64,000 nt of DNA from a virus, in the IMG/VR virus record IMGVR_UViG_3300017613_001944, positions 1-64,000 of that record. One strand, written 5' to 3'. A model generated the notes under the pieces. The model was not told the DNA's origin and did no database searches. It saw only the letters and a list, made by a program, of their open reading frames with translations. Below, in pieces: positions 20,451 through 44,664 of this stretch. The first letter of the stretch is position 1. The number at the start of each line of letters is the position of its first letter. The position numbers and the translations under genes are program-made.

Positions 20451-23400
20451 ATGGGACTTCTAACAGGAACAAGACGCGGATTAATAGGCGGAACAAGAAT
20501 AAGACCCTTCGACTTCGACCTGGATGCCACCACCTTCACCGCAGGGATGGCAAAGCGTACTGCGCCAGGCCCCTTCACCGCCGCCCCGATTGTGCAGGGG
20601 ACTTGGGCATCTGAGGTGACGACCAGGGACCAGCTTACCGGTCCCGTTGCAACAGCTGTCCATGATCTTTTTGAGGACACTGGCGACGCCTATCAAGGCA
20701 CTTTTGTTTTTTGGGTAACGCCAGAGTGGGACGGTGATGATGGAAAAGAGCACCGGTTAGTTGGGTTAGGCAATCATGCCTACGTTTTCAAGAGTACTGG
20801 TGGCTACCTTGTCTTTATGTTCAACGATGATGGAGCTTGGTCTAGTACGAGCGTTGATATTTCTGGCTGGTCGGCAGGTGCTACTTATAATGTGGTGGCC
20901 AGATGGGATGTCAAGAACACGCTAGATGGGACTAATTATGCCTGCATTTCCATCAATGATGTTCATTCTTTTGGATACACAACAGCAATAACTCCAGCCG
21001 ACATGGATAGGGTGCTGGTTGGGGATTACTCAAACAACAAGCCACCCAATGCCATCATCGAAGGACTCACCATCTACCGCCGCCCCCTCTTCGACGGCAC
21101 TTACGGCGTGGACGCCAACAGCGGAGTGGATGAGATCAACGCCATCTACGCGGCGGGTGCTGGCGCAGACCCGTGCTTGATAACGGGTTCGTGGGATGCG
21201 GTGTTCTGTCTGCCCACTGACAGCGCGGTAGGCGCGTTGGCGACGGGAACGGGTGAGGCGTGGAGCCACCCGCACAGTTCGGCGGTACTGAACCACTGGA
21301 TAGCGGAGGATGGCTATTACGGTGGTGGGCAGTGGGCGCTTATCGGTAACGCATCCAATACAGGGGTCAACTGCGGAAGCGCGGCGGCTTTGGATGATTT
21401 ACCACTGGCTGACTTTACCGTGGAAGGTTGGTTCCGCTGTGATGGGGGTGGAAGTGGTCACGACGGGGCGCTTGTATGGAAAAGCGGTGGATGGGACACT
21501 GACGGATTTTATCTTAATATCTACAATGGATATATCTCTGTAAGAATCAATTTTAACAATACTGATGTCGTGATGAACACTACCCCGACCTACAACGACA
21601 GTGCTTGGCATCACTGGGCGCTAGACTGGGATCAGGGAACTCTCACTGCCACACTATACGTGGATGGTAAAGAGGAGGCCACCGGCACGGCTGTCGGTGC
21701 GTATCAATCAGATGCAGCCGCAGAGTTCAGGATTGGAGTAGAGGGTGATTGGGGCAATCCGTTCAATGGCGCTATGGGTTGGGTGCGTCTTTCTGATGTT
21801 AGGCGCTACACAGCCGATTTCTTACCTTCCCGCGCATTTCCTGGTGCTGACGGTAACACTGTTGAGGCGTGGAATATAAACGACGGAACCGGCGCAACAG
21901 TGGTTGCACAAGTCACATCGCCGGGGAACGACGGAACCGCTGCCAATCCCGAGTGGGAGCAACAGTGGTGGCCCACCGGCACGCCGGTGATCGCGCCGTG
22001 CTTGAACTTGACAGCAGATTGGGCAAATGTGAATGGTGGATCAGGGGCCAATATTGACGATATGCCAACAGGTGATTTTACGGCAGAGCTTTACTTTTGC
22101 TATACAGATGCTGTTGCCTGGAATGTTATTGCTCAGAAGAAAACGGGGGGACTGGGCTGGTCCCTTAGTTTTGGCAGCAGTAATAAAACGCTCTTTACTA
22201 CTTTTGAATTTAATACAACAGATGCGGCTTCAGAAACAGTGGCTAATACAGTCCAACCTGGTAGATGGTATCACATCGCAGTCACTTTTGATGGCGGCAC
22301 AACCGATACGCCTATAATCTATGTGAACGGAATAAACAGATCGTCTTATTCGACTGCTGGTGTTGGTGTGTACCAAGCTGATGCTGCACAGAACTTTCTT
22401 GCCAGTAATGCAGCGACTAGAAATTTTAGATATGGCTGGCTTCGCCTCTCTGATTCAATTCGATACACTGATACCTTTGTTCCCAACAGCAGGGCCAACC
22501 CGCCAGGAAATGACGCCAATGCACAATTGCTTTGGAATATGGACGACGGAGAAGGCACAACCGTTACAGATACAAGTGGAAACGCTTATCACGGCTCTAT
22601 GTCGGCGGCAACTTCCGAGGGCTGGCTCAACACCCCCGACATGCCCACAGTCGCACCCGGCGCACGCGAATACCAGTGGGGCTACGCCATCGGCAGCGAC
22701 GGCGCTAACGACGGGGTGATCCAGAACTTGGCAGGACTGAGCGCGGGTGATGATTTCGTGGCTCGCATCCCCATTCGGTATGAGGATGTGAACGCGCAGC
22801 CGAGCATCCTTGTGTACGACGAGATTGGCGCGGCTAATATCACCAACTTCCTTGGACCCAAGCTCACAGGCGTTCACAGCGGTGGGAACAACAGCGCAAC
22901 TCTCATCGTCGCGACAGGCGCTTTCCCTCAGAGCCTAATAGGAGCTGCACTATACAACATCACCGATGGATCAAGCACTACCATCACCGCTGTGTCAGGA
23001 GACATGACGACGATCACAGGTGTGTTGTCTGGCGGCACCGACGACGATTGGGACACGAACGATGTGTTTATGATCGTCCCTGATCCGACGTGGGTGTGGT
23101 GCGAGACGTTCACCTGGGAGCTTCCGGCAGGCTGTACGGAGATGAGCGTGCATCTGCGTAACGCGGCGGGGTTGGGCGTGCTGTACTGGAACCAGGCGGA
23201 GGTTCAGGAGAATCTTGTCACTAATCCGTCAATGGAAGATCAGCGGTTGTGGGACATTGATCTTGAAACAGCAGACTTTTCCCAGTTCGACGCCACCACG
23301 GATGTGGACGGAGATATGACAGTGGGAGGCGCTGGCGCATTAGCCGGTTCTTCTAACGGCATCTCGTTCCTTGTTGATGATGCTAACGTCATGTATGCTG

Positions 23401-24782
23401 ACAAGAACCAGACTAACCCAGCGTCTGACGAGTTTAGGCTCCGCTTTTTTGTTGACCCTAACGGGTATACGCAAAACGACACTCAGGAAACAAGGTTGGC
23501 GCAGTGGCTGGATACCGGGGCTGGACTTTACACATGCATTATCGCTCTTAGGGATGATGCAGGAGCGCCGTCCTTCAAGATGCACTATTGCGATGACGCC
23601 GGTTACGGAGGCGGTGACGTTTCGGCAGAAATCACGGATGATCCACACTATGTAGAGTTCCACGTTGTTAGAGCGACAGGCGCTGTCGCCGCTGATGGGA
23701 CGGTACAGTGGTGGATTGATGGAGTGGACCAGGGGACAGTCACAGGTATAGACAACTGGGACCTGTTCGCAAACATGGACGTAGTTCGTGTGGGGGCAGA
23801 AGCAGTTGGGACTGGCGGATCAGGTACGATCTTTATTGACGAGATCACGGCTAACGACACAGGAGAAGAAATTGGACCTACGTACATTCCGATGGGGTGG
23901 AGTAATTCAGGTCTTGGTGCAGGGGATTCGGTTCAAGATAATGCAGAGCCGCATTCTGACTCGTCTTGCGTGGAATTTGTTACCGCACCGAACGCTTCTG
24001 CACTTTATTACAGCGTTAGTTTTGCTCCGGCTCCGGCGTTCGTTGGCATAGGTGGGTGGGCGCGTGAAACCGCAGGCAATATTATGTTGCGCGATGCTAG
24101 TCAACGAGCGATTCAAAACACACTCAGCACTAGAGCAGAGCTTGAAGCCTCTGGCGATGTGTGGCAACACCTTACTGGTGTTGTGAGACAAGATAGTGGC
24201 GGTGGCTGGTTTGCTTTGCGTAGTCATGAAGCCAGCTCCAGTGGTCGTTTTGATGACGTTTATGGTTTCCGTCTCGACGACGTATCCCTCACCGTCACCC
24301 CCGCGTCGGAGGCGAACAGCCTGGAAAGCGGCGGGATTCGGGTGGATGGAACGGATGACTTAGCTCAGCCCCTTTTAGGAATGACGCCAACGCGATTCCG
24401 CATTCGCTGGCGTTGTATTCCAAGGCACGGCGCAGGCGATTTTGAAAAGTTCGGCGGTGATGTATGGATGTATGCTTGGCAGGGTGTGGGCGGCGAATAT
24501 CTCTATGTGGATTGTGTGTCTGACACAACCATTAGGCTCGGTTTTGACGATGGCGGGGGTTTTCACGGCGCAAACTGGGACGCAACGGGAGTTATTGCAG
24601 CCGATACGGAATACCTGTTTGAGATTAGAACTGTTCCTACTCGAATGCAGCTTCTTGTTGATGGTGTTGTAAGGTCTACAATAAATACACCGATAAACTT
24701 TGGTGACTTTCCCGCCAATATCCATTGGGGTGTGGATGCTTGGTCGCTGGGTCAAATTGACGCCGTATTCCTTGAGCCATAG
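20451..24782 (+). CDS. Large multi-LamG (lectin-like) virion protein, 1443 aa
   Basis: Repeated FTVEGW/WHHWA/LYVDG/FNGAMGWVRLSD and FTAELY/WYHIAVT/IYVNG/WLRLSD units. Confidence 0.75.
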   Translation: MGLLTGTRRGLIGGTRIRPFDFDLDATTFTAGMAKRTAPGPFTAAPIVQGTWASEVTTRDQLTGPVATAVHDLFEDTGDAYQGTFVFWVTPEWDGDDGKEHRLVGLGNHAYVFKSTGGYLVFMFNDDGAWSSTSVDISGWSAGATYNVVARWDVKNTLDGTNYACISINDVHSFGYTTAITPADMDRVLVGDYSNNKPPNAIIEGLTIYRRPLFDGTYGVDANSGVDEINAIYAAGAGADPCLITGSWDAVFCLPTDSAVGALATGTGEAWSHPHSSAVLNHWIAEDGYYGGGQWALIGNASNTGVNCGSAAALDDLPLADFTVEGWFRCDGGGSGHDGALVWKSGGWDTDGFYLNIYNGYISVRINFNNTDVVMNTTPTYNDSAWHHWALDWDQGTLTATLYVDGKEEATGTAVGAYQSDAAAEFRIGVEGDWGNPFNGAMGWVRLSDVRRYTADFLPSRAFPGADGNTVEAWNINDGTGATVVAQVTSPGNDGTAANPEWEQQWWPTGTPVIAPCLNLTADWANVNGGSGANIDDMPTGDFTAELYFCYTDAVAWNVIAQKKTGGLGWSLSFGSSNKTLFTTFEFNTTDAASETVANTVQPGRWYHIAVTFDGGTTDTPIIYVNGINRSSYSTAGVGVYQADAAQNFLASNAATRNFRYGWLRLSDSIRYTDTFVPNSRANPPGNDANAQLLWNMDDGEGTTVTDTSGNAYHGSMSAATSEGWLNTPDMPTVAPGAREYQWGYAIGSDGANDGVIQNLAGLSAGDDFVARIPIRYEDVNAQPSILVYDEIGAANITNFLGPKLTGVHSGGNNSATLIVATGAFPQSLIGAALYNITDGSSTTITAVSGDMTTITGVLSGGTDDDWDTNDVFMIVPDPTWVWCETFTWELPAGCTEMSVHLRNAAGLGVLYWNQAEVQENLVTNPSMEDQRLWDIDLETADFSQFDATTDVDGDMTVGGAGALAGSSNGISFLVDDANVMYADKNQTNPASDEFRLRFFVDPNGYTQNDTQETRLAQWLDTGAGLYTCIIALRDDAGAPSFKMHYCDDAGYGGGDVSAEITDDPHYVEFHVVRATGAVAADGTVQWWIDGVDQGTVTGIDNWDLFANMDVVRVGAEAVGTGGSGTIFIDEITANDTGEEIGPTYIPMGWSNSGLGAGDSVQDNAEPHSDSSCVEFVTAPNASALYYSVSFAPAPAFVGIGGWARETAGNIMLRDASQRAIQNTLSTRAELEASGDVWQHLTGVVRQDSGGGWFALRSHEASSSGRFDDVYGFRLDDVSLTVTPASEANSLESGGIRVDGTDDLAQPLLGMTPTRFRIRWRCIPRHGAGDFEKFGGDVWMYAWQGVGGEYLYVDCVSDTTIRLGFDDGGGFHGANWDATGVIAADTEYLFEIRTVPTRMQLLVDGVVRSTINTPINFGDFPANIHWGVDAWSLGQIDAVFLEP

Positions 24783-31379: not shown

Positions 31380-32567
31380 ATGGCTGGGTTACAAATGCCA
31401 AATGAGACCAGGTTTGGCTTGGGCATTCAACAGGGAGGTGGAGGCCAAGGTGTCTCTGACTACTTGAAGATGGCCCTGGGCTATGAGCATGTGGTCTCGA
31501 ACAACGACAACTTTTCATATTTCCCTCTAACCGACGTTGGTATCTCCCCTGTTAAAACTATGGGAACTCTTCCACCGGAGATTGGTGGACGAGCCCTGGC
31601 GACAGGAGCTTATGCAACCGGCACTTGGGCTGCTGGCCCAGTGACAATGATCCCACGCTTGGACAATCGGCTGGGGTGGTTGCTATTGGCTGGAATGGGG
31701 GATGTCAGCACAGTTGCGGATACGAAAGCTGAGAATCTCGCCATCCTTGGCGGGGTACACGGCGCTGATGCTGGTATCAACAGCCACATCTTCCAGTTCA
31801 ACATTGACGATCAGTACTTCGTCCCGTGGCTCACGCTACGTCGTTTGCTTCCGCATTCGACCACGGCGCTGCGCTTGGGCGAGACGTTCCAAGATGGAAA
31901 GATGGCTACCTTCACGCTCACGGCAACCGCCGGAGCGCCCTTGCAAGTAGACGTTGACTTCCTGGCTAGATTGAAGCAGAGTAACTACATCTTTGACTTT
32001 GATCCAAGCTGGGGTACGTTCGTCAACGATGACTTTGACAAGTTCGGCGTTACGAGTTGTGATGGTCACTTTAACGTGGAAGACGTGGCATTCGATGTCA
32101 CTGCGGTTACGATCACGGTAGGTAACATCTTGTTGCCTCCAACCCAATCAATCATCATAGGAACCACACATCCTGTTGACTTCCCGAATCTCAACAGGAC
32201 GATGACGGTGACGGCTTCCTTCCTGGTGAGCACTTGGGACTTCTATGTCAGCACTTTCGCTGGGTCTGCGGTTACGGCTACAGATTCCAATGTTGAGTGT
32301 GCGGTTTACAAGGCAGACATAGATGTGATGTTGGCGAGTCAAGTTAACATCACCGGATCTGAACCGTATCGTATTCGGATACTGTCCAACCCGAACGAGG
32401 ATAATGCGGCTTGGACTGTTCAACCCGTTAGGATCATGCCTAACAGACCAGTGGTTGTTCAGGCTAACTGCACCGTCCTGGCGTTGGAGGGATCAAGTTG
32501 GGAGAACCATCCGGTTTTCATCGTTCTTCAAAACGACAAAGCCGACTACAACCTTCCAACACCATAG
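31380..32567 (+). CDS. Putative tail tube (major tail) protein
   Basis: Position before chaperone/TMP; beta-rich; AGGAGG RBS. Confidence 0.65.
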   Translation: MAGLQMPNETRFGLGIQQGGGGQGVSDYLKMALGYEHVVSNNDNFSYFPLTDVGISPVKTMGTLPPEIGGRALATGAYATGTWAAGPVTMIPRLDNRLGWLLLAGMGDVSTVADTKAENLAILGGVHGADAGINSHIFQFNIDDQYFVPWLTLRRLLPHSTTALRLGETFQDGKMATFTLTATAGAPLQVDVDFLARLKQSNYIFDFDPSWGTFVNDDFDKFGVTSCDGHFNVEDVAFDVTAVTITVGNILLPPTQSIIIGTTHPVDFPNLNRTMTVTASFLVSTWDFYVSTFAGSAVTATDSNVECAVYKADIDVMLASQVNITGSEPYRIRILSNPNEDNAAWTVQPVRIMPNRPVVVQANCTVLALEGSSWENHPVFIVLQNDKADYNLPTP

Positions 32568-32579
32568 GGGGTTAGAGAA

Positions 32580-32888
32580 ATGGTACTGACTGTGGGCCAA
32601 ATGCTCCAGTTGGTGCGTGCTGATCTTGAGAGTGAGACAGTTTCCATGAGCAGGAATGCTTGTATAAGGAAACTGTCTCATCTCGAGGGTCAGCTTGGAC
32701 CTAGACTGGGGAAAGGGATTAACATCCCGGTAGAAGAAAAGGATGAGAGGCTTGTCCCATCTGAGGATTTTTCAAAGCGCTCTCAGAAGCAGAGCGTCGT
32801 CGCGGAAGATCCAAAAGATGCGGAAACTGTTGAGGAAAAAAAGAAACCAACCAGAAAAAGAAGGACATATACTAAGAAAGAGGTGTAA
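32580..32888 (+). CDS. Hypothetical protein with basic C-terminus
   Basis: ORF in tail operon. Confidence 0.55.
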   Translation: MVLTVGQMLQLVRADLESETVSMSRNACIRKLSHLEGQLGPRLGKGINIPVEEKDERLVPSEDFSKRSQKQSVVAEDPKDAETVEEKKKPTRKRRTYTKKEV

Positions 32889-32890
32889 TA

Positions 32891-33376
32891 ATGGCTATCA
32901 AAGTCGCGCCTATCTTCTCGGAGCCGCTGTATCTCGGTGATCTGAGCGAAGAAGTGGCTAAGATGGAGAAGGATTGTGACCAAAACGACAGAGCATGGAT
33001 AAAAGCACGGCAAGCGACAGAATCTGATGAGATGGAGATCAGTTCACTGTACTCTAAATCAAAGACTGTGTGGACTGGTGAGGCTACGGAACAGGTCCAA
33101 GAAATCAACCCCAGGGAACGGCAGGCCATGGAGATCTACCTGTGTATGGTAGACGCCGGTAACATTGACGATGAAGATGGCCCACTGTTCACCTTTGTAG
33201 AAAATGGACCTTACGCCAAAGTGGACGGAGGCTTCCAGATATTCAAGGAAGCATACGGAAGACTTCCATCCGAGGCCACATTAGCTATGTTGCGTGCCGT
33301 GTATACTGTTAACCCCGGCTGGGGTTGGTGGTTGAGCCAAGAGAAATCGGAGGGGGAAGCGAAGACGGGGGAGTAA
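32891..33376 (+). CDS. Tail assembly chaperone (lambda G-like)
   Basis: Between tail tube and TMP; ends in slippery sequence. Confidence 0.65.
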   Translation: MAIKVAPIFSEPLYLGDLSEEVAKMEKDCDQNDRAWIKARQATESDEMEISSLYSKSKTVWTGEATEQVQEINPRERQAMEIYLCMVDAGNIDDEDGPLFTFVENGPYAKVDGGFQIFKEAYGRLPSEATLAMLRAVYTVNPGWGWWLSQEKSEGEAKTGE

Positions 33377-33717
33377 ACCCCCTTCTACAGCATCTCGATG
33401 TACTGGAGAACGCAGTTCTTGAGTGGTTAGAGAGGAGCTTCTATGAGACGGCTGACCACGAGCTCCAGAAAGCTCTACGTAAACAAGCGCTGCTCCCAGT
33501 AAATATGCAAGCCGAAATGCCGGAGGCTTACCGCATCTGGCGTACCTGTCAAAGACATAGTGAGTTGTTCTGGCCTGGTGGTATAGCCAATCAACCGGCA
33601 ACCCTTATGTTAGAGATGGAGGCTTGCGAGAGAGTTTCAAACCAGTTCCAGGATCAAATCAAGCGAATGTACGGCATTATCGAGGATAAAGGCAGTGGCG
33701 CTTCGCCCATCGGATAA
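33325..33717 (+). CDS. Frameshift extension of tail chaperone (lambda T-like)
   Basis: -1 frame relative to 32891-33376, no clear own RBS; WPGGIANQP motif. Confidence 0.65.
   Translation: MVVEPREIGGGSEDGGVNPLLQHLDVLENAVLEWLERSFYETADHELQKALRKQALLPVNMQAEMPEAYRIWRTCQRHSELFWPGGIANQPATLMLEMEACERVSNQFQDQIKRMYGIIEDKGSGASPIG
33352..33382 (+). promoter_or_regulatory. Programmed -1 frameshift signal
   Basis: In-frame G GGG GAA at 33352-33358, then GGGGG-AGTAAA-CCCCC hairpin 8 nt downstream; -1 frame open to 33717. Confidence 0.7.
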
Positions 33718-36700
33718 CCCAGGGAGAGCTCTGCAAGACAGGGCAGAACAACGCGCTCAACAGCTTATGCGTGAGCGGCGTGGTTGGTCTTATTCTGCTG
33801 CACTCAACTTTGCTATGAATGAGTTGACGTATCAGCAGCAGCATGTCGTCCTGGATGTTGAGACAACGGGTGTAAAGAAGGGCGAGAACGAGCTCATCCA
33901 GATTGGTGCCAGGAAGTTTGGTCCTGGTGGAAAACCCGGAGAGACCTATCAAACCTTTGTTGATCCAGGTGGTCCAATTCCCCAGGACATCACTAATCTA
34001 ACCGGCATCAGCACCCAGATGGTAATGGGTGCTCCCTCTCCACAACAGGCAGTCTCAGAACTGTCTCAGTTTGTAGGCAATCTCCCCGTCGTTGGTCACA
34101 ATGTTGGCTTTGACATTGGCTTCCTGGGGATGCACGGCTTTGAAGCATCAACAGCAGCAGACACTCTAGCTGCATCCAGAGCCGCTATGCCACAACGTCG
34201 CAGCCACTCTCTTGCCAACATCGCCGCAGAGCAGGGGTGGGGAATACAACAGCACGAGGCCATGGCTGATGTTGGCATGACCTCCTTACTTCATAGTCAG
34301 CTAGCAACAATGTATCAAGGAGGTGTTCCTCCACCGAGTGGACCACCTCCACCTGCAAACATCTCCCGCTCCATGGGACCCACGCAAAGGGCGTTGCCCC
34401 CAGCAGTGCACGGCGCTGCTATGCAGTTGGGGATAGACGCACAGCAGGCTTCTGAGATCGTCAGCTCGGCTGGTGGTGGATCTATCCGCCAGCAGATAGA
34501 AGCCGTACAACAGTTTGTATACAACAAGATAGGCAAACCCGCCCCCTTTGGCGGTAGTGCAGATCCCATGCAGGCTCTCTCCCCCACACAGTGGGTGCAA
34601 ACCACAGAGAGTGGGCGTGCGATGACACGCACCATGACACCCTTGCCATCATCCTTTGATCCAGCTAAAGCGCAGGAGACATGGGACCCAGGGCAGATAT
34701 CCTATCCTGGGAACAAGATGCAACTTGATCTTGAGCGCAGTCTTGGTGCTTCGATATGGCCTGTTCGAGGTGGGGCGATTCAGACGGGACTAGAAAAGCC
34801 TGAACAATTCCCCAAGCGAATTAAGCAAGCAATCTCGAACTATCAGCAGATTTATCTCAAGGACATGGAGATAGAGGAGGCTCCGTGGTTGACAGGGCCA
34901 ACCTCTCAAGCTCCCGAGAAGGGGCAGACTCTTCGCACTGCTGTGGTGTTTGGCGGCTTTGCTCCCGAGGGCATGTCCTACATTAAGCAGGATCTGGGCT
35001 CCGCCGGGGACTTCAAGTATCACAAGCTCCCTATTCCAGCAGGGGTGGTGCCAGAGGATATAGCTCCTGTCGGAACTGCATTTACTAGATCTCAGGGGGC
35101 ACAGCTATTCAAGGGGCACACCGGCATCAAGTTTGGTGACTGGGAAGAGCAGCATGTTCAGGACATTAGATTTGAGCCTGGAGCCATCAACCAGCCAGGC
35201 GCTCTACACGTCAGAATGGGAAGGGGCATTCCTCTAACACGCGGTATCGGCTACTCGATGCACTCTGGTAAGGAGTTGCTGGTGGGTGCCGATGTCGAGA
35301 AGATGACTGGCAGAAGCGACATCCAGGTGGTGAAAGCTGGTCCCAGGGATGTGCTTGGTCTGGCATTCCAGGCATACAGCTCCATGGCTCCAGCCGAATA
35401 CGAGAGGGTAACTGGCAAGCCGCGCCCTGCCACTTGGCAACAAGCTGCCGCAGATGAAGAGTCTATGGCAGCTTTTGATCGGATGGCTAGTGACAACGCC
35501 ACGATGCTCCAGTTCCCCGACCAAATTATCTCTAAAGCCAACCTTGAGGCTTTTAAAGAGGGCAATAGGATAGTTCCCGGCACATTAGAAGAGCTCGGCG
35601 GCGAGAGATACCGTGCCACCCTGGAGTATCCAGCGGTGGTAATGGATCTCTTTACCCAGTTCACCCGTGGGGCCTATGAGCATGGTCAACCATTTGTTGG
35701 GGAGGGTACTCTCCGGCGAATAAGAGACGCCAACCCTCAACTCTACAACCAGATGATGGGTGAGGGAAAGCAGCAGCGTGAGTGGAGACAGCAAAACGTC
35801 CAGGCATACACTGCCAGCAGAGGAATACCGGGATTAAGGCAAGCTCCAGACCAATACACTATGGCAAGGGATCTTCCCTGGACTAACATTACACAAGACG
35901 CTACTCGCAGAGCCATGAAGATCAGCGGTGTTGATCGCCCCGAGGATATCCCTTACGGCGCAGAACAAGCAGCACTGTTACAACGAATCCCTCTAACTCA
36001 CGAGGGTCGAGCCACAGGAGCTCTCGCCTTCGAGAGCCGTGGCAAGGATTATTTCTTCCCCCATCCCAGGCATGTCCCCGCCGTACCAGGGACCTTGGGC
36101 TATGAAGAACGAAGCGCCTATAGGCACCGCTACGCAAATCTACTCCAGGAACAAATGAGGTATCAAGAGACTGGTGAGGAGGAGCCGTATCGCTCTGCCC
36201 TTGCTGGTACAATGCTAGCTAGTCACCGTCTTGTAAGCTCCGGCGAATTTCTAAAGCGCACGCTGGGCGTAGAGCCACGAAGTCTATATGGTGGCATGGG
36301 TGCTGCATCTTTCGCCAATCTTCCCGAAGAGCTGTATATGCCAACAGAGGCTGCTGCAAGAGCCAGTGGTATCAAGGTTGGCACTCCCGAATATGAAAGA
36401 TTCCAGCGCAATTTCGAGTCAGGCGGTTATCAGTTTGCTGCCTCTGTATTCCGGGAGCCTACCACTGATACGGCGGGAGTGCTGGTGAAGGGACTGGTCA
36501 AGTGGATAGGCACACATCCAAACGAAACTCTTCGGGACGCACGTATACCAGTCTTGTCTGCGGAGATGGGCCAGACACTAAGAGGCGACTTTGACAAGGA
36601 CGCCTACACCATTGCCAGGGAGTGGGGCATTGATCTAGCAGATGCCCAAACTCTCAAGATACAAATGCGCGACTTCAATCTTTCAAATGCCCAGGCTGAC

Positions 36701-39700
36701 AAGGCAGGACAGCGAGACAAGCAATTCAAGGAGATTGGAAAGTTTGGCACTATTAGATCCATGCTGGATAGAATAGGCCAGAGAACAGCAATACCTCTTA
36801 GAGATGCTATTGGGCAGATGAGCGAGAGGTCCAGTGTCGGCAGACAGATGGGTTATGGCTACAATATTCAGCAAGAGCTAGAAATGTCGGCGGTAGATCC
36901 AGAATCCAAGGCAGCAGCAGAGCTATTGGGCTCCAATATGTATATGCAGGGCCAGGACTTTGAGAAGTGGAGCAAGGAGCTTGAAAGTCTGGTAGTGCAT
37001 CGCAGTGCCAACCTTGCAACAGGCGGTGCATATAATATCATTACTGGTGAGCCGTCACGCATCCCATTCGGCAGGTCAGAGACGGGAATGATGCTCTCTG
37101 CCATTAGGATGGGATCAAATCTCCCAGGCTTGAGCTCCAGAGAGAAGGCAGCAATGATGACCCCTGCTGGTAATGAGGGGCTTCGTGCAGCAGTGGAGGG
37201 AGCTCTTGAGTCTGGTGACATTGACTCAATAGCACACTTATTGGAGGGTGCTCTTCCCGGCGGGGCACAGGAATGGGGAGAGAATACATTATTAGGGCGA
37301 CAAGTGTTAGGTCGCGCAGCAGATTTAGGACAAAGGAAAGGTGCCAAAGGAATCCGTGAATCACTAGCAGAAATCGGCAGATCATTAAGGTCTGTCGGTG
37401 CAGTAAGACGTTCTTATCCATTTAAGGGACGTGTGGAGGCGCTTAGAGAAAGAATGCGTCTAGGCGGAGAGCCTCCATCACCCGTTATGCAGGCTCTCTT
37501 GCCTGGCAGCGAAGCGCCTCTGGATGTCTCAGGTATGACACCAGAGGAGCAAGATGCTATGGCTATAAAAGCAGCCTCAGCCTCCTCTGGTAGGGGGCAA
37601 GGGCAAACACCAGAAGAAACAAGACGATTCGCTGATCGACAAATGGAGTGGCAAGCTGAGATAGCAAGAGGTACCGCTGACCCAGCAAACTATCCCGATC
37701 TATTCCCAACGAAGGAAGAGTACGCGAGATACGCGGCTCAAAGAGCCGGGGCACCCCCACGCCCACCCGATCCGGCACGTTCTGCCGGTTCAGGCGGTAT
37801 GGGAGGTGGAAGATTACCGCCTGTCACCACCGCTACCCCAGATCCGTCAGATCCACGTCAGTCTGGTGAAGGTGATCCCAAGAAGTGGGTTGTCAACCTG
37901 AACTATGGTGCTGTGAAGATAGGAGACTTTAACCGAGCAATTGAGACAATGACCAGCCGACTTGGTGATTGGTCTGAAGAAATGGACCCGATTGTCACCG
38001 GCGGTAAGCAGTTCACAAAAGCCCAGCAGCAGATGACTGAGAAGTTAATCTCTGCACGCAGAACTCTCGAAAGAGCAGATAGAGGCGAGGGGGATTTTAC
38101 GTCTGCACAGATACAAGCTGCCCAGCAAGCTCTTGCCACGCCTGGTATGGGTGTTCTTGGGCAAGCAGAAGAGCAGATCACCAATCGCTGGTGGGGCCAG
38201 AGAATGGATCAGGGCGCAAGAGGGCGCGTAGGTCGCTTCTATGAGCGCTTTGGTTCACGAGGAATGGGAGACGCCTCACCAACAGAGCGCATGGAGCGCG
38301 GATTCAGAAGTGTATTCTCTGGATGGGAGCTCATGCGCTTACAGCGTATGTGGGGTCTGACTGGTGGACGAGCGTTTGGCGCTATGCCAGTTGCCGCAGA
38401 AGCACAGCAAGGTGCTATGCAAGCCGCCATGGTTGGACAGCCTATGGGCCAGTTTGGGATGGGCGATATCACTGCTGGCTTACTTGAGACGGGTGCAAGA
38501 CAACAACAGTTCCAGGTTCAGATGGGCACTGCTACTAACCAGGCTTGGGGCTGGATGCCTAGAGCTATGGCAAACACAGGACTGGGCACAGCGGCTGGCA
38601 TTGGATTACCTGCACTTGGCATGGGTGCTGCTGCTGGATGGGGAGCTGGGGTACTTGGACTTGGCGCTCTTTCTACTCCCCTTGGTTTAGGGGTTGCAGC
38701 AGGAGCGGGTATATATGGCGGGATCAACTATCTAAGAAATAGGCCAGAAGAGGACATAGATGTTGCGGCAGCGGAGCAACGAAAGCGAGATCTGACGCGA
38801 CAAATAGCGACACCTCAAGGGCTGGAGCGCTTCAGGCCACCGGGATGGATGGGTGGTGCCTTTGGCCCAAGCGTTGAAGGCTACTCTGAAGAACAAGCAG
38901 AGAGAGGCGAAACGATCCTTAGCGGAGAGCTAACTGGTCTTTCTGTTCCACAACGGATGAAGGCCATTCAGGAAGCATATCAATATGCTCCGCAATGGAT
39001 GGAGCCAACGGCTGCACAGGGCCTTGCTCAACAGTGGATGCGCTATGATCCCGAAGCAACTAACATCAGAGAAATCTACGAGGACCCACGCTTCGAGGCA
39101 ATGGCTGCACGCGGCACTGATGTTGAAACCTACGCTAAAATGGCAGAGGGTTTTGGTATGCGCCCAAGCCAAGCCTTTGATATTTACAGTATCATGGCTG
39201 GCGTGTCAGAGCAAGAGTTTGGTCCAGTTTCTGAGACTGCTCAATCGTGGATGGGACTTGGTAGAGCTGCTGGCATGAAGCCAGAAGACATCTTAAGTCG
39301 CTCCAAGCCAAGAACACAGACTCCTGGGGATACCCGGTGGGGTGATGTATATAATCCTGAGCGACTGGCGGGACCAAGATTGGAGCGATTGTCAGGCGAT
39401 CCGATGGTACAGCAAAGAGCGCAAGCTATCGAAGGTATGATGATACAGCGGCGCACAGCAGGGATGGAGATCCCGTTTGAACCCCCCACCACTGAAGCGG
39501 CGGTGATGGATATCTACCAAGGTGGGCAGATGCAGCTAGGCACTGCTGGATTGGGGCTTGCCAATCAGTTTATGGGAATGGGAGCTACTCCGCTAACTGC
39601 CGGGGCTGGTGCTGGTGCCGCAGAGCGTTACGGTATGATGGGGGTACGAGGTGTCAGTGGCTTTATGGGCGGGGACAGGAACATAATGGCTATGCTTGGT

Positions 39701-40942
39701 CAGGCCAATGTTCAAGGTCCATTCTCCCAGGTGAATGTCGGTGGTGGAATGCAATATAACGCAGGTCCACTGCGACAGGGCATCGAGGACGCCCTGGCAC
39801 AAGTCATGTCCCCAGAGGGAGCACAGAGTATAAGGGGAATGATGGGGGATATTCGCCCCTTAGTGGAACCAGAGACTGGCATGCAGATGGGTACCACTCG
39901 CATGTACGAGGGTTTCGCTGATGAATACCAGTTGCCTAGAGGCACAGATCAAGGAGCGTTTGATAAATATACTCAAATGCTGGTTACTGGTGGTAGACGT
40001 GACGTTGAGCGGGAAAAGGCCAGTCTCCAAGGTGACTTCCGAACATTCCAGCAAGATCAGCAAAGAACACAGCTAGAGTTACGCGGTGTATCTCAGTTCG
40101 GTGGGACCTTTGAGTCGCCCTACGGTGGTACATTAGATACCAAGGGCACCTTTGAGCTCACGCGGGAGATGAGAAATCTCTCCAGGACCTTCCAGGACTA
40201 TAACCAAGAGTACAATCAGGAGTCTCGACAACTGGGCTACAACCAGTTCCAAGAGAATTGGCAAGTACGAGCTCAGAGAATGCCTATCCAATTCCAGAGG
40301 CAGCGTGAAGACCTGGCTTTCCAGGGCAACCAGGCGGCTATGGGCTTCGGTTGGCAGATGGAAGACATCCAGGAGAACCTGCGCTTTGCCACTGGCAGGG
40401 ACAGGCGACGGCTATTACGCCAGCAAGAGCGTGCAGCCATCAGCTTTGGGATGGGACAGGGCCAGCGAGAAACACAGGCTGGACGAATAGACCAGAATGA
40501 GCGCTGGGCTGCTGAAGATCTTGAGCGACAGAAGCGACATTTTGAAGAGCGCTTCCGCTTACAGGATGATTACCAGGAAAGGTACCGTCAGTACACAGAA
40601 GAGCGTAGGGCAATAGAGGATCAGCTCCAAGAGATCCAGGAATTCAATGCCCAGTACAACTTAGAGGCTTCGACAGAGCAGCTAGACAAGTCCATCGCTC
40701 TCAACGAGCAGCTAAACGGGATACAAGAAGCATACACGGCAATGAACCAGGATCTCGAGAAGCAGGTTGGACTACAGCAACAGATCGTCAAGAACATCGA
40801 GTACTTGATAGCTCAATTTGCCGATGATGGTAGAGCAACCAACGCATTCAACGGTTTCATTTCACACATCGAGAACTCCTTCTCTCGGGAATCCGCCGAG
40901 ATAGGGCTGATGATCGACAGAATTTACGGCAACGATAGCTAG
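33695..40942 (+). CDS. Tape-measure protein fused to N-terminal DEDDh exonuclease and putative two-barrel RNA polymerase (2415 aa)
   Basis: LDVETTG/HNVGFD/HEAMAD; GQTLRTAVVFGGFAPEG, MHSGK, FREP, GDFDKD; Gly/Ala hydrophobic segment and long Q/E/R coiled coil; TMP locus. Confidence 0.8.
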   Translation: MALRPSDNPGRALQDRAEQRAQQLMRERRGWSYSAALNFAMNELTYQQQHVVLDVETTGVKKGENELIQIGARKFGPGGKPGETYQTFVDPGGPIPQDITNLTGISTQMVMGAPSPQQAVSELSQFVGNLPVVGHNVGFDIGFLGMHGFEASTAADTLAASRAAMPQRRSHSLANIAAEQGWGIQQHEAMADVGMTSLLHSQLATMYQGGVPPPSGPPPPANISRSMGPTQRALPPAVHGAAMQLGIDAQQASEIVSSAGGGSIRQQIEAVQQFVYNKIGKPAPFGGSADPMQALSPTQWVQTTESGRAMTRTMTPLPSSFDPAKAQETWDPGQISYPGNKMQLDLERSLGASIWPVRGGAIQTGLEKPEQFPKRIKQAISNYQQIYLKDMEIEEAPWLTGPTSQAPEKGQTLRTAVVFGGFAPEGMSYIKQDLGSAGDFKYHKLPIPAGVVPEDIAPVGTAFTRSQGAQLFKGHTGIKFGDWEEQHVQDIRFEPGAINQPGALHVRMGRGIPLTRGIGYSMHSGKELLVGADVEKMTGRSDIQVVKAGPRDVLGLAFQAYSSMAPAEYERVTGKPRPATWQQAAADEESMAAFDRMASDNATMLQFPDQIISKANLEAFKEGNRIVPGTLEELGGERYRATLEYPAVVMDLFTQFTRGAYEHGQPFVGEGTLRRIRDANPQLYNQMMGEGKQQREWRQQNVQAYTASRGIPGLRQAPDQYTMARDLPWTNITQDATRRAMKISGVDRPEDIPYGAEQAALLQRIPLTHEGRATGALAFESRGKDYFFPHPRHVPAVPGTLGYEERSAYRHRYANLLQEQMRYQETGEEEPYRSALAGTMLASHRLVSSGEFLKRTLGVEPRSLYGGMGAASFANLPEELYMPTEAAARASGIKVGTPEYERFQRNFESGGYQFAASVFREPTTDTAGVLVKGLVKWIGTHPNETLRDARIPVLSAEMGQTLRGDFDKDAYTIAREWGIDLADAQTLKIQMRDFNLSNAQADKAGQRDKQFKEIGKFGTIRSMLDRIGQRTAIPLRDAIGQMSERSSVGRQMGYGYNIQQELEMSAVDPESKAAAELLGSNMYMQGQDFEKWSKELESLVVHRSANLATGGAYNIITGEPSRIPFGRSETGMMLSAIRMGSNLPGLSSREKAAMMTPAGNEGLRAAVEGALESGDIDSIAHLLEGALPGGAQEWGENTLLGRQVLGRAADLGQRKGAKGIRESLAEIGRSLRSVGAVRRSYPFKGRVEALRERMRLGGEPPSPVMQALLPGSEAPLDVSGMTPEEQDAMAIKAASASSGRGQGQTPEETRRFADRQMEWQAEIARGTADPANYPDLFPTKEEYARYAAQRAGAPPRPPDPARSAGSGGMGGGRLPPVTTATPDPSDPRQSGEGDPKKWVVNLNYGAVKIGDFNRAIETMTSRLGDWSEEMDPIVTGGKQFTKAQQQMTEKLISARRTLERADRGEGDFTSAQIQAAQQALATPGMGVLGQAEEQITNRWWGQRMDQGARGRVGRFYERFGSRGMGDASPTERMERGFRSVFSGWELMRLQRMWGLTGGRAFGAMPVAAEAQQGAMQAAMVGQPMGQFGMGDITAGLLETGARQQQFQVQMGTATNQAWGWMPRAMANTGLGTAAGIGLPALGMGAAAGWGAGVLGLGALSTPLGLGVAAGAGIYGGINYLRNRPEEDIDVAAAEQRKRDLTRQIATPQGLERFRPPGWMGGAFGPSVEGYSEEQAERGETILSGELTGLSVPQRMKAIQEAYQYAPQWMEPTAAQGLAQQWMRYDPEATNIREIYEDPRFEAMAARGTDVETYAKMAEGFGMRPSQAFDIYSIMAGVSEQEFGPVSETAQSWMGLGRAAGMKPEDILSRSKPRTQTPGDTRWGDVYNPERLAGPRLERLSGDPMVQQRAQAIEGMMIQRRTAGMEIPFEPPTTEAAVMDIYQGGQMQLGTAGLGLANQFMGMGATPLTAGAGAGAAERYGMMGVRGVSGFMGGDRNIMAMLGQANVQGPFSQVNVGGGMQYNAGPLRQGIEDALAQVMSPEGAQSIRGMMGDIRPLVEPETGMQMGTTRMYEGFADEYQLPRGTDQGAFDKYTQMLVTGGRRDVEREKASLQGDFRTFQQDQQRTQLELRGVSQFGGTFESPYGGTLDTKGTFELTREMRNLSRTFQDYNQEYNQESRQLGYNQFQENWQVRAQRMPIQFQRQREDLAFQGNQAAMGFGWQMEDIQENLRFATGRDRRRLLRQQERAAISFGMGQGQRETQAGRIDQNERWAAEDLERQKRHFEERFRLQDDYQERYRQYTEERRAIEDQLQEIQEFNAQYNLEASTEQLDKSIALNEQLNGIQEAYTAMNQDLEKQVGLQQQIVKNIEYLIAQFADDGRATNAFNGFISHIENSFSRESAEIGLMIDRIYGNDS

Positions 40943-40951
40943 AGGTGAACC

Positions 40952-41377
40952 ATGGCGGCAAGTGTGCATAGCAGTATCAGGTTAGACTGTGATCTTACCG
41001 GAGAGTTACCAACAAACGAGTACGGCGTGACATTTGATGGCCTATCTCAGATGTATGAACCTGCCATTGTGGTGGAGCGCTCTCTCACCGGGACCATGCA
41101 CGTACACCGCATCCTCACCGGCAGTACCCCAATGGTATTCGACGGGTTTGAGTATGTTCTACTGCTCACCAGGGCAGAGAAAACTCAGCTTGCAGAGGAC
41201 CTGGGCAAACTGGTGTACTTTATGCCTCACTATCGAGACGAGAGTGATGTAGACGCCTATCGCAGTGTGATGTTATTCAGGGGTATGCAGGATGTTCGGA
41301 ATCTCGATCCTCACCTGGAGTACTATCACGCCACAATCATCTTAGAAGAGGCAACAGGACGGGTAGCTGATTCATGA
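40952..41377 (+). CDS. Putative distal tail protein
   Basis: Small gene directly after TMP; GAGGTG RBS. Confidence 0.5.
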   Translation: MAASVHSSIRLDCDLTGELPTNEYGVTFDGLSQMYEPAIVVERSLTGTMHVHRILTGSTPMVFDGFEYVLLLTRAEKTQLAEDLGKLVYFMPHYRDESDVDAYRSVMLFRGMQDVRNLDPHLEYYHATIILEEATGRVADS

Positions 41378-44300
41378 TAACGAAGAGTGGAGACCTCACT
41401 TGGTGGCTGCAAGCCGCCTACGATAACTTTGTCAGTGATACGGGAGATCCCGTGTTCCAGTTCTTGTTGGAGGCATACAGCCTCTCCATCTCATCTGTCT
41501 CAGAGGTGAGTGGTAGTGGCTACGCGCCGGTAAGTGAGGTTGACGCTATTGTCTGCGGTGATACCATCATCAAGGCTTGGGTGGTAGATCCGTGGGCACA
41601 GGGGGGTGGCCTTCACATCGCAACCCTGGCTGATGAAGATGCTGCCGATCAAACCTGGACAGAACAAATACTCATTGATGTAAACCTTGACGAGACGGTT
41701 CCCCCCTCTCTGGCAGTAGATGGCAACACCGCCAGGGTGTTTTACTACGATGGTACCAGCATCGAGTATTTCGAGAGTGCTGATAAGGGGGCGACTTGGG
41801 GGGCCTCCCAATCAGTACAGGCTATCAACAACTGTACCTTTATCGCGGCGACTACCCTCACGAGGGTGCATTATATGTATGAGACGGCGGAGCATAACCT
41901 CCTACTGGGGGTACTCAACTATGCCGCCGCTGTATGGACGGCTACGGATAGTGATATCTACTGGCCCTTCAGACCCGGCTCATTCGACGCTATCACCGGC
42001 AACCAACTGGATGATGGAGCAGCCTCCGATAATGACATAATAGCCTTCACCACAGACTTTCCGCCGTTAATAGCAATGAGGGTTGACGGTACGGAGACAG
42101 TGAGGTTCTATGAAAGAGTGCAGGGGATAGCCGTTATACGTTATCAGAACGGTAGATGGAGTGACCACTACGAGTTTGATGTAGTGGACAACCAGCCGAC
42201 TATCCCGGCAAGAACAAATCTGCGTCTATCCAAGTACGGTGAGTTCATGTTCATGACCTACTTGCGTGTCGATGGCACAGAGAACTACCCTCACAACTCT
42301 CTGGCTCTCTCCCGCTCTAGGACAGGGCTGGACTGGGAGATGCCCTACCTTATGCCGTCCAGCGTTGTGGGTACGGCGGCTGTTTTACTGAAGCGTGGGA
42401 TATATGCGTATCTGGTGGACTCCACCGGGAAAAAGATGCGCTCCTACTCCTGCGGCTACGTGGGAGATCCCTACATAATCCATGATCTCTCTGACTACTG
42501 CCTCTCCGTGGACACCCGCATGGGGGACCTGAAGGAAGTCTCTATCACTTTGGGTAACCCCAACGGCGTTCATAATGACATATTCGATGATGAGATAATG
42601 TGGCAGATGCGGGTCAAGCAGGGCTACCATATCGACGCATCAGACTATATCATAGATACTGCCGTAGCCGACCTGTATGAGATCTCCCGTGATCGTAATA
42701 TCCCCACGGATCACCTTGTCCTTACTGGTAGGTGTGAATTGGGTAGAACAACTTCTCTGCGTGCAGATACGGTGCAGGAGAGGGAGAGCCACCAGATAGG
42801 TGGGGATGACTTTGAGAGCATGGACGGTACCAAGTGGTCTGGATTGAGGCACACCGCTGCCTTCGTGGGCTACTATGAGGCGGAGAACAACATCCTGTAT
42901 CTTAAACCCACCGCCAACCAGGGTGTTGCCTTTACCACGCTGGTCTCTGAGGTGTGGAATGGAGCTGTTCAGTCGGGTATTTACGTGGCTGGTACCGATG
43001 CCCAGGACTATGCCGGTGTGATCTTCAGGGGCTATGACCTCTATAATTTCTGGTTTGCCGCTTATAGGGCAGATACCGATAAGATCATCCTTGCCGAGAG
43101 GGTGGATAATGTAGACACGGTGATTGCCTCTGTCTCTAACATGGGCTGGTCGTTCGGGACCTGGTATTATATCAAGGTGGTGTTCCGTTACAACTACATC
43201 AAAGTCTACAGTTCTACCGATGGTAAGACGTGGACAGAGAGGATTGCCTTCCAGATAGATGGTACCCCCTCTACTGCTGACTGGACCACCTTTGGCGGCA
43301 TCTCTGTGATGTCAGGAAGTATGGGATACTGCGGCTATGGCTACTCGGAGGAAGAAACCTACTATCCTGACCCACCTGACCCACCTCCTCCGCCTGTTGT
43401 GGACCCCGTGTGGCCCAGTATTGTCATGGTTGCCACTCAGGGAGGGACTGGGAAAGTGGGCGGAATCTATCTAACGGAGGATTTTACTGAACCCGGTGGT
43501 ACAATGCCTACCTGGACGGCAGCTAATACCGGCTTGCCTGATGGTGCCGGTGAGCCGGATATACGATTACTGGGAGTTGATACATTCCATAGAGCCTATC
43601 GGCAATACTGCTTGACTGAGGATGGTCGAGAGCTGTATGTACGCACCACCTCTGATCTCGGGGGTGATGGTTCCTGGAGTTTGATCCTCAACAGAAGCAT
43701 GATTATAGACCAGTTCACCGGGGATTTCGCCCTGGCACAGATTCTCTATTTCGACACAGACCCACAGAATGATGGGCACATCTACGTCCTGTTCCAGCAC
43801 ACTACCGGAGCCGCCAGGGTACCCTTTGTAGCCAAGTCTACCGACTATGGGGCTACATGGGAGAATATGGGACAGGTGAAGTACGATGAAGCAGGCAGTT
43901 TATTCTACCGTATCTGCTCCATTCACGCTTATGGCGGCAAGGTGTTCGTCCTAGTTAACAGATCCTACACTCCGTGGGGTGTGTGCATATACTACAGTGA
44001 TGATGGAGCCGCCAACTGGGTGGATAGGAGCGAGAGGGTCGGCAATTACCGGGGTACCTACGACACTCTTGGCAATTTCAATCACACCGAACCCGATATA
44101 CTGCACATGCAAGCATACGAGGTGACACATCCCATTGAGTTTACCCAATACGACCTATGGTTATGGCAGAATGTGGGTAGTGGGGTTGACACATTTGAGT
44201 GTGGTCATGATGCTATTACTGGGCTGAGGTTGGGGGTCAACAGACCTGACTTTATCTGCTATGATCGTAGTGTTGCGGCTAATGCCAAGATGATTAAACT

Positions 44301-44664
44301 TGGTGATCCTACTACTGTCCCGGCGAGAATGGCAAAATACTACATAACCACCTTGCGTTTCAAGACTCTGACCAATGGTATAGCCGATTTCTCTAACTGG
44401 AATGTCATGTGCTACGCCTCTGAGGGTGGTACCTCCTGGGTGAATGACGCCGATGACAGTATGCTGATCTATGGGGCGAATAACTGTGACCACAGCCACG
44501 CCTCAACGACTCGCCATCACATCCTGGCGGCGGATACCACCGTAGATCACACCACCACCTCTGGAAAAGCAGGGTCAAACGTGACAAATGGACCAGCTTA
44601 TACCGACTCGATCCCATACGCTGCTGGCGGAGTTAGTTGGCGTGGAATCCAGGTGCTAAAATGA
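41374..44664 (+). CDS. Tail tip protein with Asp-box (BNR) propeller regions
   Basis: SADKGATW, STDGKTW, STDYGATW, SDDGAANW; Pro-rich linker PDPPDPPPPP. Confidence 0.65.
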   Translation: MITKSGDLTWWLQAAYDNFVSDTGDPVFQFLLEAYSLSISSVSEVSGSGYAPVSEVDAIVCGDTIIKAWVVDPWAQGGGLHIATLADEDAADQTWTEQILIDVNLDETVPPSLAVDGNTARVFYYDGTSIEYFESADKGATWGASQSVQAINNCTFIAATTLTRVHYMYETAEHNLLLGVLNYAAAVWTATDSDIYWPFRPGSFDAITGNQLDDGAASDNDIIAFTTDFPPLIAMRVDGTETVRFYERVQGIAVIRYQNGRWSDHYEFDVVDNQPTIPARTNLRLSKYGEFMFMTYLRVDGTENYPHNSLALSRSRTGLDWEMPYLMPSSVVGTAAVLLKRGIYAYLVDSTGKKMRSYSCGYVGDPYIIHDLSDYCLSVDTRMGDLKEVSITLGNPNGVHNDIFDDEIMWQMRVKQGYHIDASDYIIDTAVADLYEISRDRNIPTDHLVLTGRCELGRTTSLRADTVQERESHQIGGDDFESMDGTKWSGLRHTAAFVGYYEAENNILYLKPTANQGVAFTTLVSEVWNGAVQSGIYVAGTDAQDYAGVIFRGYDLYNFWFAAYRADTDKIILAERVDNVDTVIASVSNMGWSFGTWYYIKVVFRYNYIKVYSSTDGKTWTERIAFQIDGTPSTADWTTFGGISVMSGSMGYCGYGYSEEETYYPDPPDPPPPPVVDPVWPSIVMVATQGGTGKVGGIYLTEDFTEPGGTMPTWTAANTGLPDGAGEPDIRLLGVDTFHRAYRQYCLTEDGRELYVRTTSDLGGDGSWSLILNRSMIIDQFTGDFALAQILYFDTDPQNDGHIYVLFQHTTGAARVPFVAKSTDYGATWENMGQVKYDEAGSLFYRICSIHAYGGKVFVLVNRSYTPWGVCIYYSDDGAANWVDRSERVGNYRGTYDTLGNFNHTEPDILHMQAYEVTHPIEFTQYDLWLWQNVGSGVDTFECGHDAITGLRLGVNRPDFICYDRSVAANAKMIKLGDPTTVPARMAKYYITTLRFKTLTNGIADFSNWNVMCYASEGGTSWVNDADDSMLIYGANNCDHSHASTTRHHILAADTTVDHTTTSGKAGSNVTNGPAYTDSIPYAAGGVSWRGIQVLK

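Follow-up and report, generated by a model that had tools for sequence, protein, structure and literature searches.

A DEDDh-type exonuclease domain precedes a predicted RNA polymerase in a probable tape measure protein of uncultured phages

The first 64,000 nucleotides of the 82,211-bp virus record IMGVR_UViG_3300017613_001944 (linear according to IMG/VR, 84% complete according to CheckV), here called the window, were analyzed for an unusual nuclease domain. A single open reading frame (ORF) of 2415 amino acids (aa), termed P0001 (33695..40942, plus strand), was found to comprise, as read from the ORF list and the translation, an exonuclease, then a predicted two-barrel RNA polymerase (RNAP) core and then a tape-measure-like part. 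It is almost certain that an intact DEDDh exonuclease domain is encoded within this giant ORF. There are good grounds to regard P0001 as a virion tape measure protein that carries an RNAP, and, as judged by analogy, the phage probably injects an exonuclease and an RNA polymerase together with its DNA. As an overall explanation we tentatively favor, with a confidence that falls just short of even, that the tape measure protein combines exonuclease and RNAP and that the exonuclease would trim 3' ends in cis at entry, nascent RNA being the favored substrate.

The DEDDh (DnaQ/PolC-type) 3'-5' exonuclease domain occupies 33830..34309 on the plus strand (aa 46-205) and was recognized by matches in Pfam, PHROGs, NCBIfam, the PDB and PADLOC. 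The Pfam family RNase_T (PF00929) matches aa 51-196, corresponding to profile positions 1-160 of 164, with an E value of 5.8e-23 and 82.7 bits at a cut-off of 24. When the 82-kb record was searched with PF00929 in all six frames, a single match was obtained (33845-34282, 89.1 bits), which contains no internal stop and lies in an open frame of 2442 aa. The domain is likewise matched by the PHROG family phrog_192, annotated as "DNA polymerase exonuclease subunit" (E 5.3e-34), and by the PADLOC model "DEDDh" (E 5.1e-33, 112.7 bits). In NCBIfam, 25 families match the exonuclease, headed by PolC (NF001688, E 5e-30) and followed by DEDD-exonuclease proteins and DinG. None of these 25 matches reaches the curated cut-off of its family (for example 103.9 versus 873, and 56.9 versus 71.5 for dnaq), and models for RNase T or oligoribonuclease are absent from them. 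Among the sequences of the PDB, nine distinct matches were found at E ≤ 0.001. These are PolC exonucleases (2p1j, E 1.3e-14; 9qpc, E 1.6e-14) as well as DnaQ (8h18), Cas2-DEDDh (8fy9, 8fyc; E 3e-10, 9.6e-9), DinG (8zef) and E. coli epsilon. By NCBIfam and PADLOC the domain is akin to exonucleases of the DNA type, namely those of PolC, DnaQ and DinG and the CRISPR-associated DEDDh proteins, and not to RNase T.

The catalytic residues were located by a HMMER alignment to 2p1j, in which the segments VLDVETTG, HNVGFD and H-EAMA-D pair with the ExoI, ExoII and ExoIII motifs, respectively, and by an alignment of 14 exonuclease rows. On the plus strand, the ExoI motif (VLDVETTG) contains D54 (codon 33854-33856) and E56 (codon 33860-33862), the ExoII motif (HNVGFD) contains D140 (codon 34112..34114), and the ExoIII motif (HEAMAD) extends from H187 (34253-34255) to D192 (34268-34270). 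D54, E56, D140 and H187 are identical in 14/14 rows. D192 is identical in 13, the 14th row being a slice that ends upstream of the D192 column. A preliminary description of this DNA had named the same five residues; all of them are indeed present, and the numbering is correct for a GTG start at 33695. The position it had given for the domain is correct as well, the Pfam match (33845-34282) lying inside one ORF. A peculiarity is seen next to the ExoIII histidine. In P0001 (HEAMAD, 34253-34270), and also in P0124, a second protein with this fusion that is treated below (HDALAD, aa ~188-195), the histidine is followed by an acidic residue, and an arginine follows it in 11/11 free, PolC or phage comparators. 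The acidic residue may be a shared derived feature or the product of convergent change.

The exonuclease and the parts that follow it belong to one uninterrupted chain. At its GTG start (33695) the ORF overlaps the preceding one, and a Shine-Dalgarno-like GAGGA motif lies 8 nt before this start (33682..33686, plus strand). In-frame ATG codons precede the domain (aa 25 and 41) or follow it (aa 228 and 244), and by eye none of them is preceded by a Shine-Dalgarno-like motif. A flexible, proline-rich linker (aa 206-240; 34310..34414, plus strand; 14 prolines within aa 201-300) leads from the exonuclease to the conserved core, and homology to relatives that lack the exonuclease begins at aa 242-245. 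The nucleotide composition is uniform across the parts of the ORF: with a GC content of 0.53 and a GC content at third codon positions of 0.50, the exonuclease resembles the remainder. Its codon-use distance to the other structural genes is 0.274, while 480-nt segments elsewhere in the ORF give 0.332 +/- 0.042. Two contigs carry the 2415-aa protein in identical form, and the same order of exonuclease, linker and core in one chain recurs in P0124, a protein of 2867 aa from ENA with ~26% identity. With the open frame and the gene context described below, the domain can be addressed, as the preliminary description had it, as the N-terminal module of a protein in the tape-measure slot.

The region behind the linker was compared with 1.84 billion representative proteins by phmmer (query aa 226-1350). 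Only five proteins were returned, namely the query itself and P0121, P0122, P0123 and P0124. Weak alignments to the same region were obtained for P0002, P0003 and P0006, and a marginal one for P0004 (E 0.007). In all ten giant relatives, a count that includes P0001, an RxP or GxP motif is followed ~40-50 residues further on by a DxDxD motif. The double-psi barrel of the beta-prime subunit is characterized by the pattern R-x-P-[ST]...NADFDGD. An alignment of ten sequences revealed the corresponding beta-prime-like signature in P0001, consisting of R920-E-P922, a spacer of ~40 aa and G-D965-F-D-K-D969 (FREPTT...GDFDKD; 36452..36601, plus strand). The proline and the three aspartates of this RxP...DxDxD signature are invariant in 10/10 sequences.

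Further support for an RNAP core came from structure prediction. A first AlphaFold 2 model covering aa 226-1350, built from an alignment of five sequences, was poor (mean predicted local distance difference test score, pLDDT, of 49.7); Foldseek found nothing with it at E ≤ 1e-3, and VIA returned only RNAP matches below noise (Z ≤ 6.3). A second model covered aa 400-1120 and was built from ten sequences. Its mean pLDDT was 57.7, with model residues 20-250 at 60-87. With this model, Foldseek yielded 88 matches in the PDB at E ≤ 1e-3, with 4wqt_C at the top (3.8e-5), and among the best 50 of the 88 the listed matches are all second-largest subunits of multisubunit RNAPs. They include bacterial beta, Pol I, III, IV and V as well as the enzymes of African swine fever virus, vaccinia and plastids. 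VIA-align placed 6rfl_B (Z 7.6, 218 residues), 4c2m_B (Z 6.7, 212 residues) and 8q3b_B (Z 6.3, 209 residues) amid short helical-hairpin matches of similar Z, and 13 matches at E ≤ 1e-3 were found in BFVD, mostly to viral RNAPs. The model m8f84449d7e9a together with Foldseek, VIA and BFVD delimits a module like the RNAP second-largest (beta/Rpb2) subunit at aa 404-661 (34904..35677, plus strand). A profile of the middle domain found nothing meaningful among PDB sequences (best E 1.3), and the ESM Atlas returned only unnamed viral clusters (≤ 0.82) for the middle part. In the proposed architecture, aa ~240-1340 would form a two-barrel single-chain RNAP core with the putative catalytic GDFDKD at 965-969. 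The fold matches of the second model and the RxP...GDxDxD signature support a polymerase domain that follows the exonuclease in the same chain, in agreement with the polymerase domain invoked in the preliminary description.

The gene is located where a tape measure gene would be expected in a tail operon. Upstream lies a tail tube protein gene (31380..32567, plus strand; Pfam Phage_tube_2, PF18906, E 9.1e-8, 32.5 bits at a cut-off of 27), followed by two ORFs that overlap in the -1 frame according to the computed frames and resemble tail assembly chaperone genes (32891-33376 and 33313/33325-33717, plus strand). No family matches were found for these two ORFs (32891-33717). A -1-overlapping chaperone pair ahead of the tape measure gene is the usual layout of phage tail regions. 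The overlap itself (33313-33376) is G-rich (GAGGGGGAA, ACGGGGGAG), and a canonical XXXYYYZ slippery heptamer was not identified in it. Downstream, two tail genes for proteins of 141 aa and 1096 aa (40952..44664, plus strand) were assigned by tblastn and by the matching order of their counterparts in the IMG/VR contig L002; a weak BNR_2 match below the cut-off is present in these genes. Of 20 window ORFs queried, seven were matched in L002 with their order kept, among them the tube gene, the giant ORF and the three genes that come after it.

The C-terminal part of P0001 (aa 1416-2400; 37940..40894, plus strand) is tape-measure-like, as indicated by its hydropathy and by its identity to other giant metagenomic proteins. 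It shares 36-46% identity with four of these, P0002-P0005 (2146-2960 aa), and weaker partial matches (29-35%) were found to P0006 (1968 aa). P0004 is labeled at NCBI as belonging to a Planctomycetota metagenome-assembled genome, which may be a clue to the host range of these phages. A Gly/Ala-rich hydrophobic segment is visible in the hydropathy plot at aa 1641-1671 (38615-38707, plus strand), and at least one hydrophobic segment is present in each of the nine relatives scanned. Neighbors of aa 1400-2415 in a protein language model include TMP_3 and TMP_2 clusters at 0.89-0.90, which we regard as a lead only.

A tape measure protein with RNAP activity has been described in Thermus phage P23-45. 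Its gp96 comprises 5002 aa, of which residues 327-1124 constitute an active clamp-less two-barrel RNAP with DFDGD at 779-783 (Chaban et al. 2024, PMC10770324). Activity does not require residues 1-326, most of which are disordered in the crystal, and the authors propose that the tape measure protein forms a pore at which pre-early genes are transcribed (PMC10770324). The gp96 group (P23-45; also P74-26, G20c and TSP4) resembles P0001 in that a giant protein in the tape-measure slot has an RNAP, in P0001 a predicted one, with DxDxD in its N-terminal half and a hydrophobic segment further on. The position of the motif differs (779-783 in gp96 versus 965-969, ~740 residues past the linker, in P0001), and gp96 has a metallopeptidase domain, whereas Pfam detected none in the 2415 aa of P0001. 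When P0001 was compared by tblastn with 50,697 phage records, 79 were matched, all via aa 19-206 only and thus only in exonuclease genes. Judged from these comparisons, the P0001 lineage appears unrelated in sequence to gp96 and has the same predicted architecture with an extra module.

The distribution of this module was determined by Pfam scans of all ten giant relatives, a survey that the preliminary description had proposed. The domain is present in two, P0001 and P0124 (32.6 bits, cut-off 24), and absent from eight. Since only two of the ten carry it, the exonuclease is best classed as an accessory, optional add-on module, and the N-terminus as a variable accessory position. Indeed, P0121 has ~200 unrelated residues in place of the exonuclease, and P0122, encoded on a 3.4-kb contig that cuts its C-terminus, starts right at the conserved core, at the equivalent of aa ~228-242. 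P0123, the giant homologue encoded at 9539-19174 of L002, has two CxxCxGxG motifs, probably zinc-binding, in the exonuclease position; a weak Peptidase_M78 match below the cut-off was also noted in it (aa 1373-1423).

Further members of the lineage were sought. The scan of viral contigs gave one locus, L002, and no member was recovered from 344 metagenome-contig or 330 genome-contig candidates. With P0124 as query none was found in viral contigs, and its exonuclease region matched only itself among proteins of 1576-5018 aa. The preliminary description had called the architecture unusual. This view was strengthened by phage records with a similar exonuclease: no tail or tape measure annotation occurs among the matches listed, 60 of 177 such records. 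Two candidates for a fusion in cultured phages were rejected, as the domain lies in a 599-aa ORF in MT835764 and in a 301-aa protein in Agrobacterium phage OLIVR5, neither being a giant tail protein.

Among the five core-bearing members, P0124 stands furthest apart (30-32% identity versus 36-42% for the others). The exonucleases of P0001 and P0124 share 30% identity over 124 residues (43.5 bits), while the P0001 exonuclease scores 76-100 bits against each of 12 free, PolC or phage exonucleases; that of P0124 is about equally far from most comparators. A maximum-likelihood tree of the 14 exonuclease rows gave no resolution and put P0124 on a very long branch. One ancient fusion followed by losses and two separate captures are equally possible origins.

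DEDDh domains are found in several other systems that help to interpret P0001. The exonuclease domains of PolC and DnaQ (Pol III epsilon) have the same ExoI, ExoII and ExoIII residues, and identity to one PolC exonuclease domain reaches 37%. Unlike in these, the exonuclease of P0001 is neither joined to a DNA polymerase nor encoded beside one, and a Glu follows its catalytic His. In the CRISPR-associated DEDDh and Cas2-DEDDh proteins (8fy9, 8fyc) and in the DinG fusions the domain is joined to a nucleic-acid-handling partner, as in P0001; the partner is Cas2 or a helicase there and a putative virion RNAP plus tape measure protein here. Cas2-DEDDh and DinG-type DEDDh domains trim 3' ends for their partner. 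In coronaviruses, the DEDDh domain of nsp14 edits for the viral polymerase. The likeness of this ExoN to P0001 lies in the concept of a separate 3'-5' exonuclease that serves a polymerase, the polymerase served by nsp14 being RNA-dependent and of another fold. The N4 virion RNAP is T7-like. Together with gp66 of phi14:2, a phage of the crAss-like kind, it resembles P0001 in being a polymerase delivered with the genome inside a very large protein (PMC10770324); unlike P0001, both are packed in the head and have no tape measure fusion. Archaeal PolD, a DNA polymerase of the two-barrel type, has a proofreading exonuclease that is separate from it (PMC4996933, PMC6355029). Its DP1 is Mre11-like and not DEDDh, so that here too the likeness to P0001 is one of concept only.

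By analogy with gp96 of P23-45, P0001 would be assembled into the tail and ejected into the host upon infection, and the polymerase would then reside at the entry pore and transcribe the incoming DNA. In the tape measure proteins of other siphophages, it is the N-terminus that faces the head. If the same holds for this phage, the exonuclease would be nearest to the leading DNA end, last to enter the cell and tethered beside the polymerase, and it could trim 3' ends in cis at the genome-entry complex. A virion contains 3-6 copies of the tape measure protein. Since few tethered copies can act only locally, a 3' end at the entry complex is the expected substrate, and we consider it fairly likely that the exonuclease acts on 3' ends there. 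In complexes that have stalled or backtracked, the 3' end of the nascent RNA would be the favored substrate, and its trimming would amount to a rescue of the kind provided by Gre or TFIIS or to proofreading. In PolC, DinG and Cas2-DEDDh, where a DEDDh domain is fused to a polymerase or helicase, the domain acts on whichever 3' end its partner handles, and these three are the best sequence matches of the exonuclease domain. RNA is favored because such fused domains usually serve the 3' end of the partner, and because an arrested polymerase at the entry site would block infection; even so, RNA as the substrate is a possibility to which we give less than even credence. Its most specific form, in which the exonuclease would be an external 3'-end editor of a two-barrel DNA-dependent RNAP, trimming the RNA extruded by backtracked complexes at the entry site and preventing a stall of entry, appears unlikely as a complete account. 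A role in exposing single-stranded template for the polymerase was rejected from strand polarity, since the strand that serves as template for inward transcription enters with its 3' end first and a 3'-5' exonuclease would remove it.

Several observations weigh against the explanation that a tape-measure-borne exonuclease trims nascent RNA for its RNAP. To our knowledge, no two-barrel RNAP uses an external exonuclease; RNA is cleaved in the active site of the polymerase itself. The closest sequence families of the domain are DNA exonucleases, and as none of the 25 NCBIfam matches is an RNase T model, a DNA substrate is favored on this count. The beta-prime-like barrel rests on motifs and weak fold matches, with a pLDDT below 50 around DxDxD, and matches of the first model to RNAP largest subunits are weak (6rfl_A, Z 6.0; 8hil_A, Z 4.7). 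No tape measure model matches P0001 in Pfam (E ≤ 0.1) or in PHROGs (E ≤ 0.01). Comparison of P0001 with a four-sequence gp96 alignment by hhalign was not significant (E 0.12, probability 0.5%); the top local match pairs FREP...GDFDKD of P0001 with FRNP...VDFDGD of gp96, and at this E value it was not counted as homology. Finally, the exonuclease is absent from 8/10 relatives, and the words "exonuclease" and "nuclease" have no occurrence in the main text of the gp96 paper (PMC10770324), which means that the polymerase can do without an exonuclease.

Other functions and readings of the domain were weighed against trimming of nascent RNA. The preliminary description had put forward RNA trimming, processing of genome ends and degradation of defense nucleic acids side by side, with no preference among them. 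That the domain processes genome ends is doubtful in our view, but ranks only narrowly behind the RNA reading. The exonuclease would resect the 3' end of the incoming DNA to a 5' overhang, which could leave host end-dependent nucleases with a poor substrate or ready terminally redundant ends for annealing by the phage recombinases. Such a function would suit a domain at the extreme N-terminus whose best relatives (PolC, DnaQ, DinG and CRISPR-associated DEDDh proteins) trim DNA 3' ends. The phage also encodes a RecA (E 4e-44) along with a member of AAA_24 (E 1.5e-19), the Sak4-like annealing-protein family, besides a DnaB-like helicase (50298-52089 and 59596-60957, both minus strand). However, terminal repeats of 20-100 nt were not found across the 82-kb record, which is linear and 84% complete. 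A 3'-5' exonuclease at the leading end would degrade the template strand of inward transcription, 3'-protruding cohesive ends, if present, would be destroyed, and eight of the ten relatives lack the domain altogether. This same patchiness (2/10), at an N-terminal position that is variable and differently occupied in L002 and P0121, would fit an injected counter-defense nuclease that degrades host defense nucleic acids with free 3' ends, such as reverse-transcriptase single-stranded DNA or guides. Patchiness is typical of accessory anti-defense modules, and a nuclease delivered with the genome would act ahead of any phage gene expression. We nevertheless regard this function as improbable: the few tethered copies per virion suit local and not cell-wide substrates, similarity to a described anti-defense protein is lacking, and the PADLOC matches are to DEDDh models of the defense side.

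The preliminary description had seen no DNA polymerase in the window. This was borne out and extends at the Pfam level to the whole 82-kb record, 84% complete, in which DNA_pol_A, DNA_pol_B, DNA_pol3_alpha and DNA_pol_B_2 have no match. The fused polymerase might on this account make DNA itself and be edited by the DEDDh domain in the manner of PolD, as the record encodes RecA and a DnaB-like helicase despite the lack of a family A, B, C-alpha or protein-primed B polymerase and the exonuclease is of the replicative proofreading type; PolD would be a precedent (PMC4996933, PMC6355029). We hold this to be very improbable, because gp96, the only characterized tape measure fusion of its kind, is an RNAP (PMC10770324), because the exonuclease is missing from eight of the ten relatives, and because a late structural protein present in few copies is an unlikely replicase. 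Moreover, the record is incomplete, and most early genes have no family match, as seen in Pfam for 10/10 ORFs tested beyond the window. Just as remote is the chance that the domain is an artefact or non-functional, be it through an assembly chimera at the junction, a translation start further downstream or decay to an inactive binding relic. The in-frame ATG codons at aa 228 and 244 and the start of P0122 at the equivalent of aa ~228-242 would be in line with a downstream start. These codons, however, have no Shine-Dalgarno-like motif by eye, and an untranslated domain would mean a gap of ~600 nt in a tightly packed operon. Further counterarguments are the single open frame without a stop, the uniform composition and codon use, the identical protein on two contigs, the same architecture in P0124 and the retention of all five catalytic residues in both fusions.

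Within the searchable literature, the P23-45 group of Thermus phages (2024) appears to be the only one in which tape-measure-fused virion RNAPs have been described. A fusion of an exonuclease to a tape measure protein or a virion RNAP was not found in titles, the beginnings of abstracts or term look-ups in PMC10770324 and PMC10684548, and "exonuclease domain" has no occurrence in the virion-RNAP literature retrieved in this way. The locus would represent a lineage of uncultured phages that seems unrelated in sequence to the P23-45 group and appears to follow the same strategy, and in part of this lineage a complete exonuclease of the proofreading type has been added ahead of the predicted polymerase. 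If delivered and active, it would be a new kind of injected enzyme and could reveal either an unknown way to keep a cellular-type RNAP going or the first handling step of the incoming genome end. Should editing of RNA 3' ends prove true, it would be the first separate DEDDh exonuclease to serve a cellular-type RNAP fold, and a phage counterpart of nsp14 or of the DP1 of PolD. The module is small (aa 1-240; if the polymerase is included, aa 1-1350) and directly amenable to in vitro work.

The remaining observations concern the surroundings of the giant gene. In PHROGs no family was found for 10/10 ORFs neighboring it, most structural genes being too divergent. A scan of 32500-35500 revealed no promoter-like sites and a single terminator-like site on the plus strand (32502-32519), upstream of the giant ORF and at chance level. 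The terminase large subunit gene is located at 13459-15237 (phrog_2, E 1.3e-9). Right behind the terminase region, amid structural genes, lies a glycosyltransferase-like gene (16927-17994, plus strand; phrog_7162, E 3.5e-13). Between the packaging and the tail genes, a protein of 1443 aa is encoded (20451-24782, plus strand) that contains a Laminin_G_3 or concanavalin-like domain (aa 315-449, E 1.6e-23).

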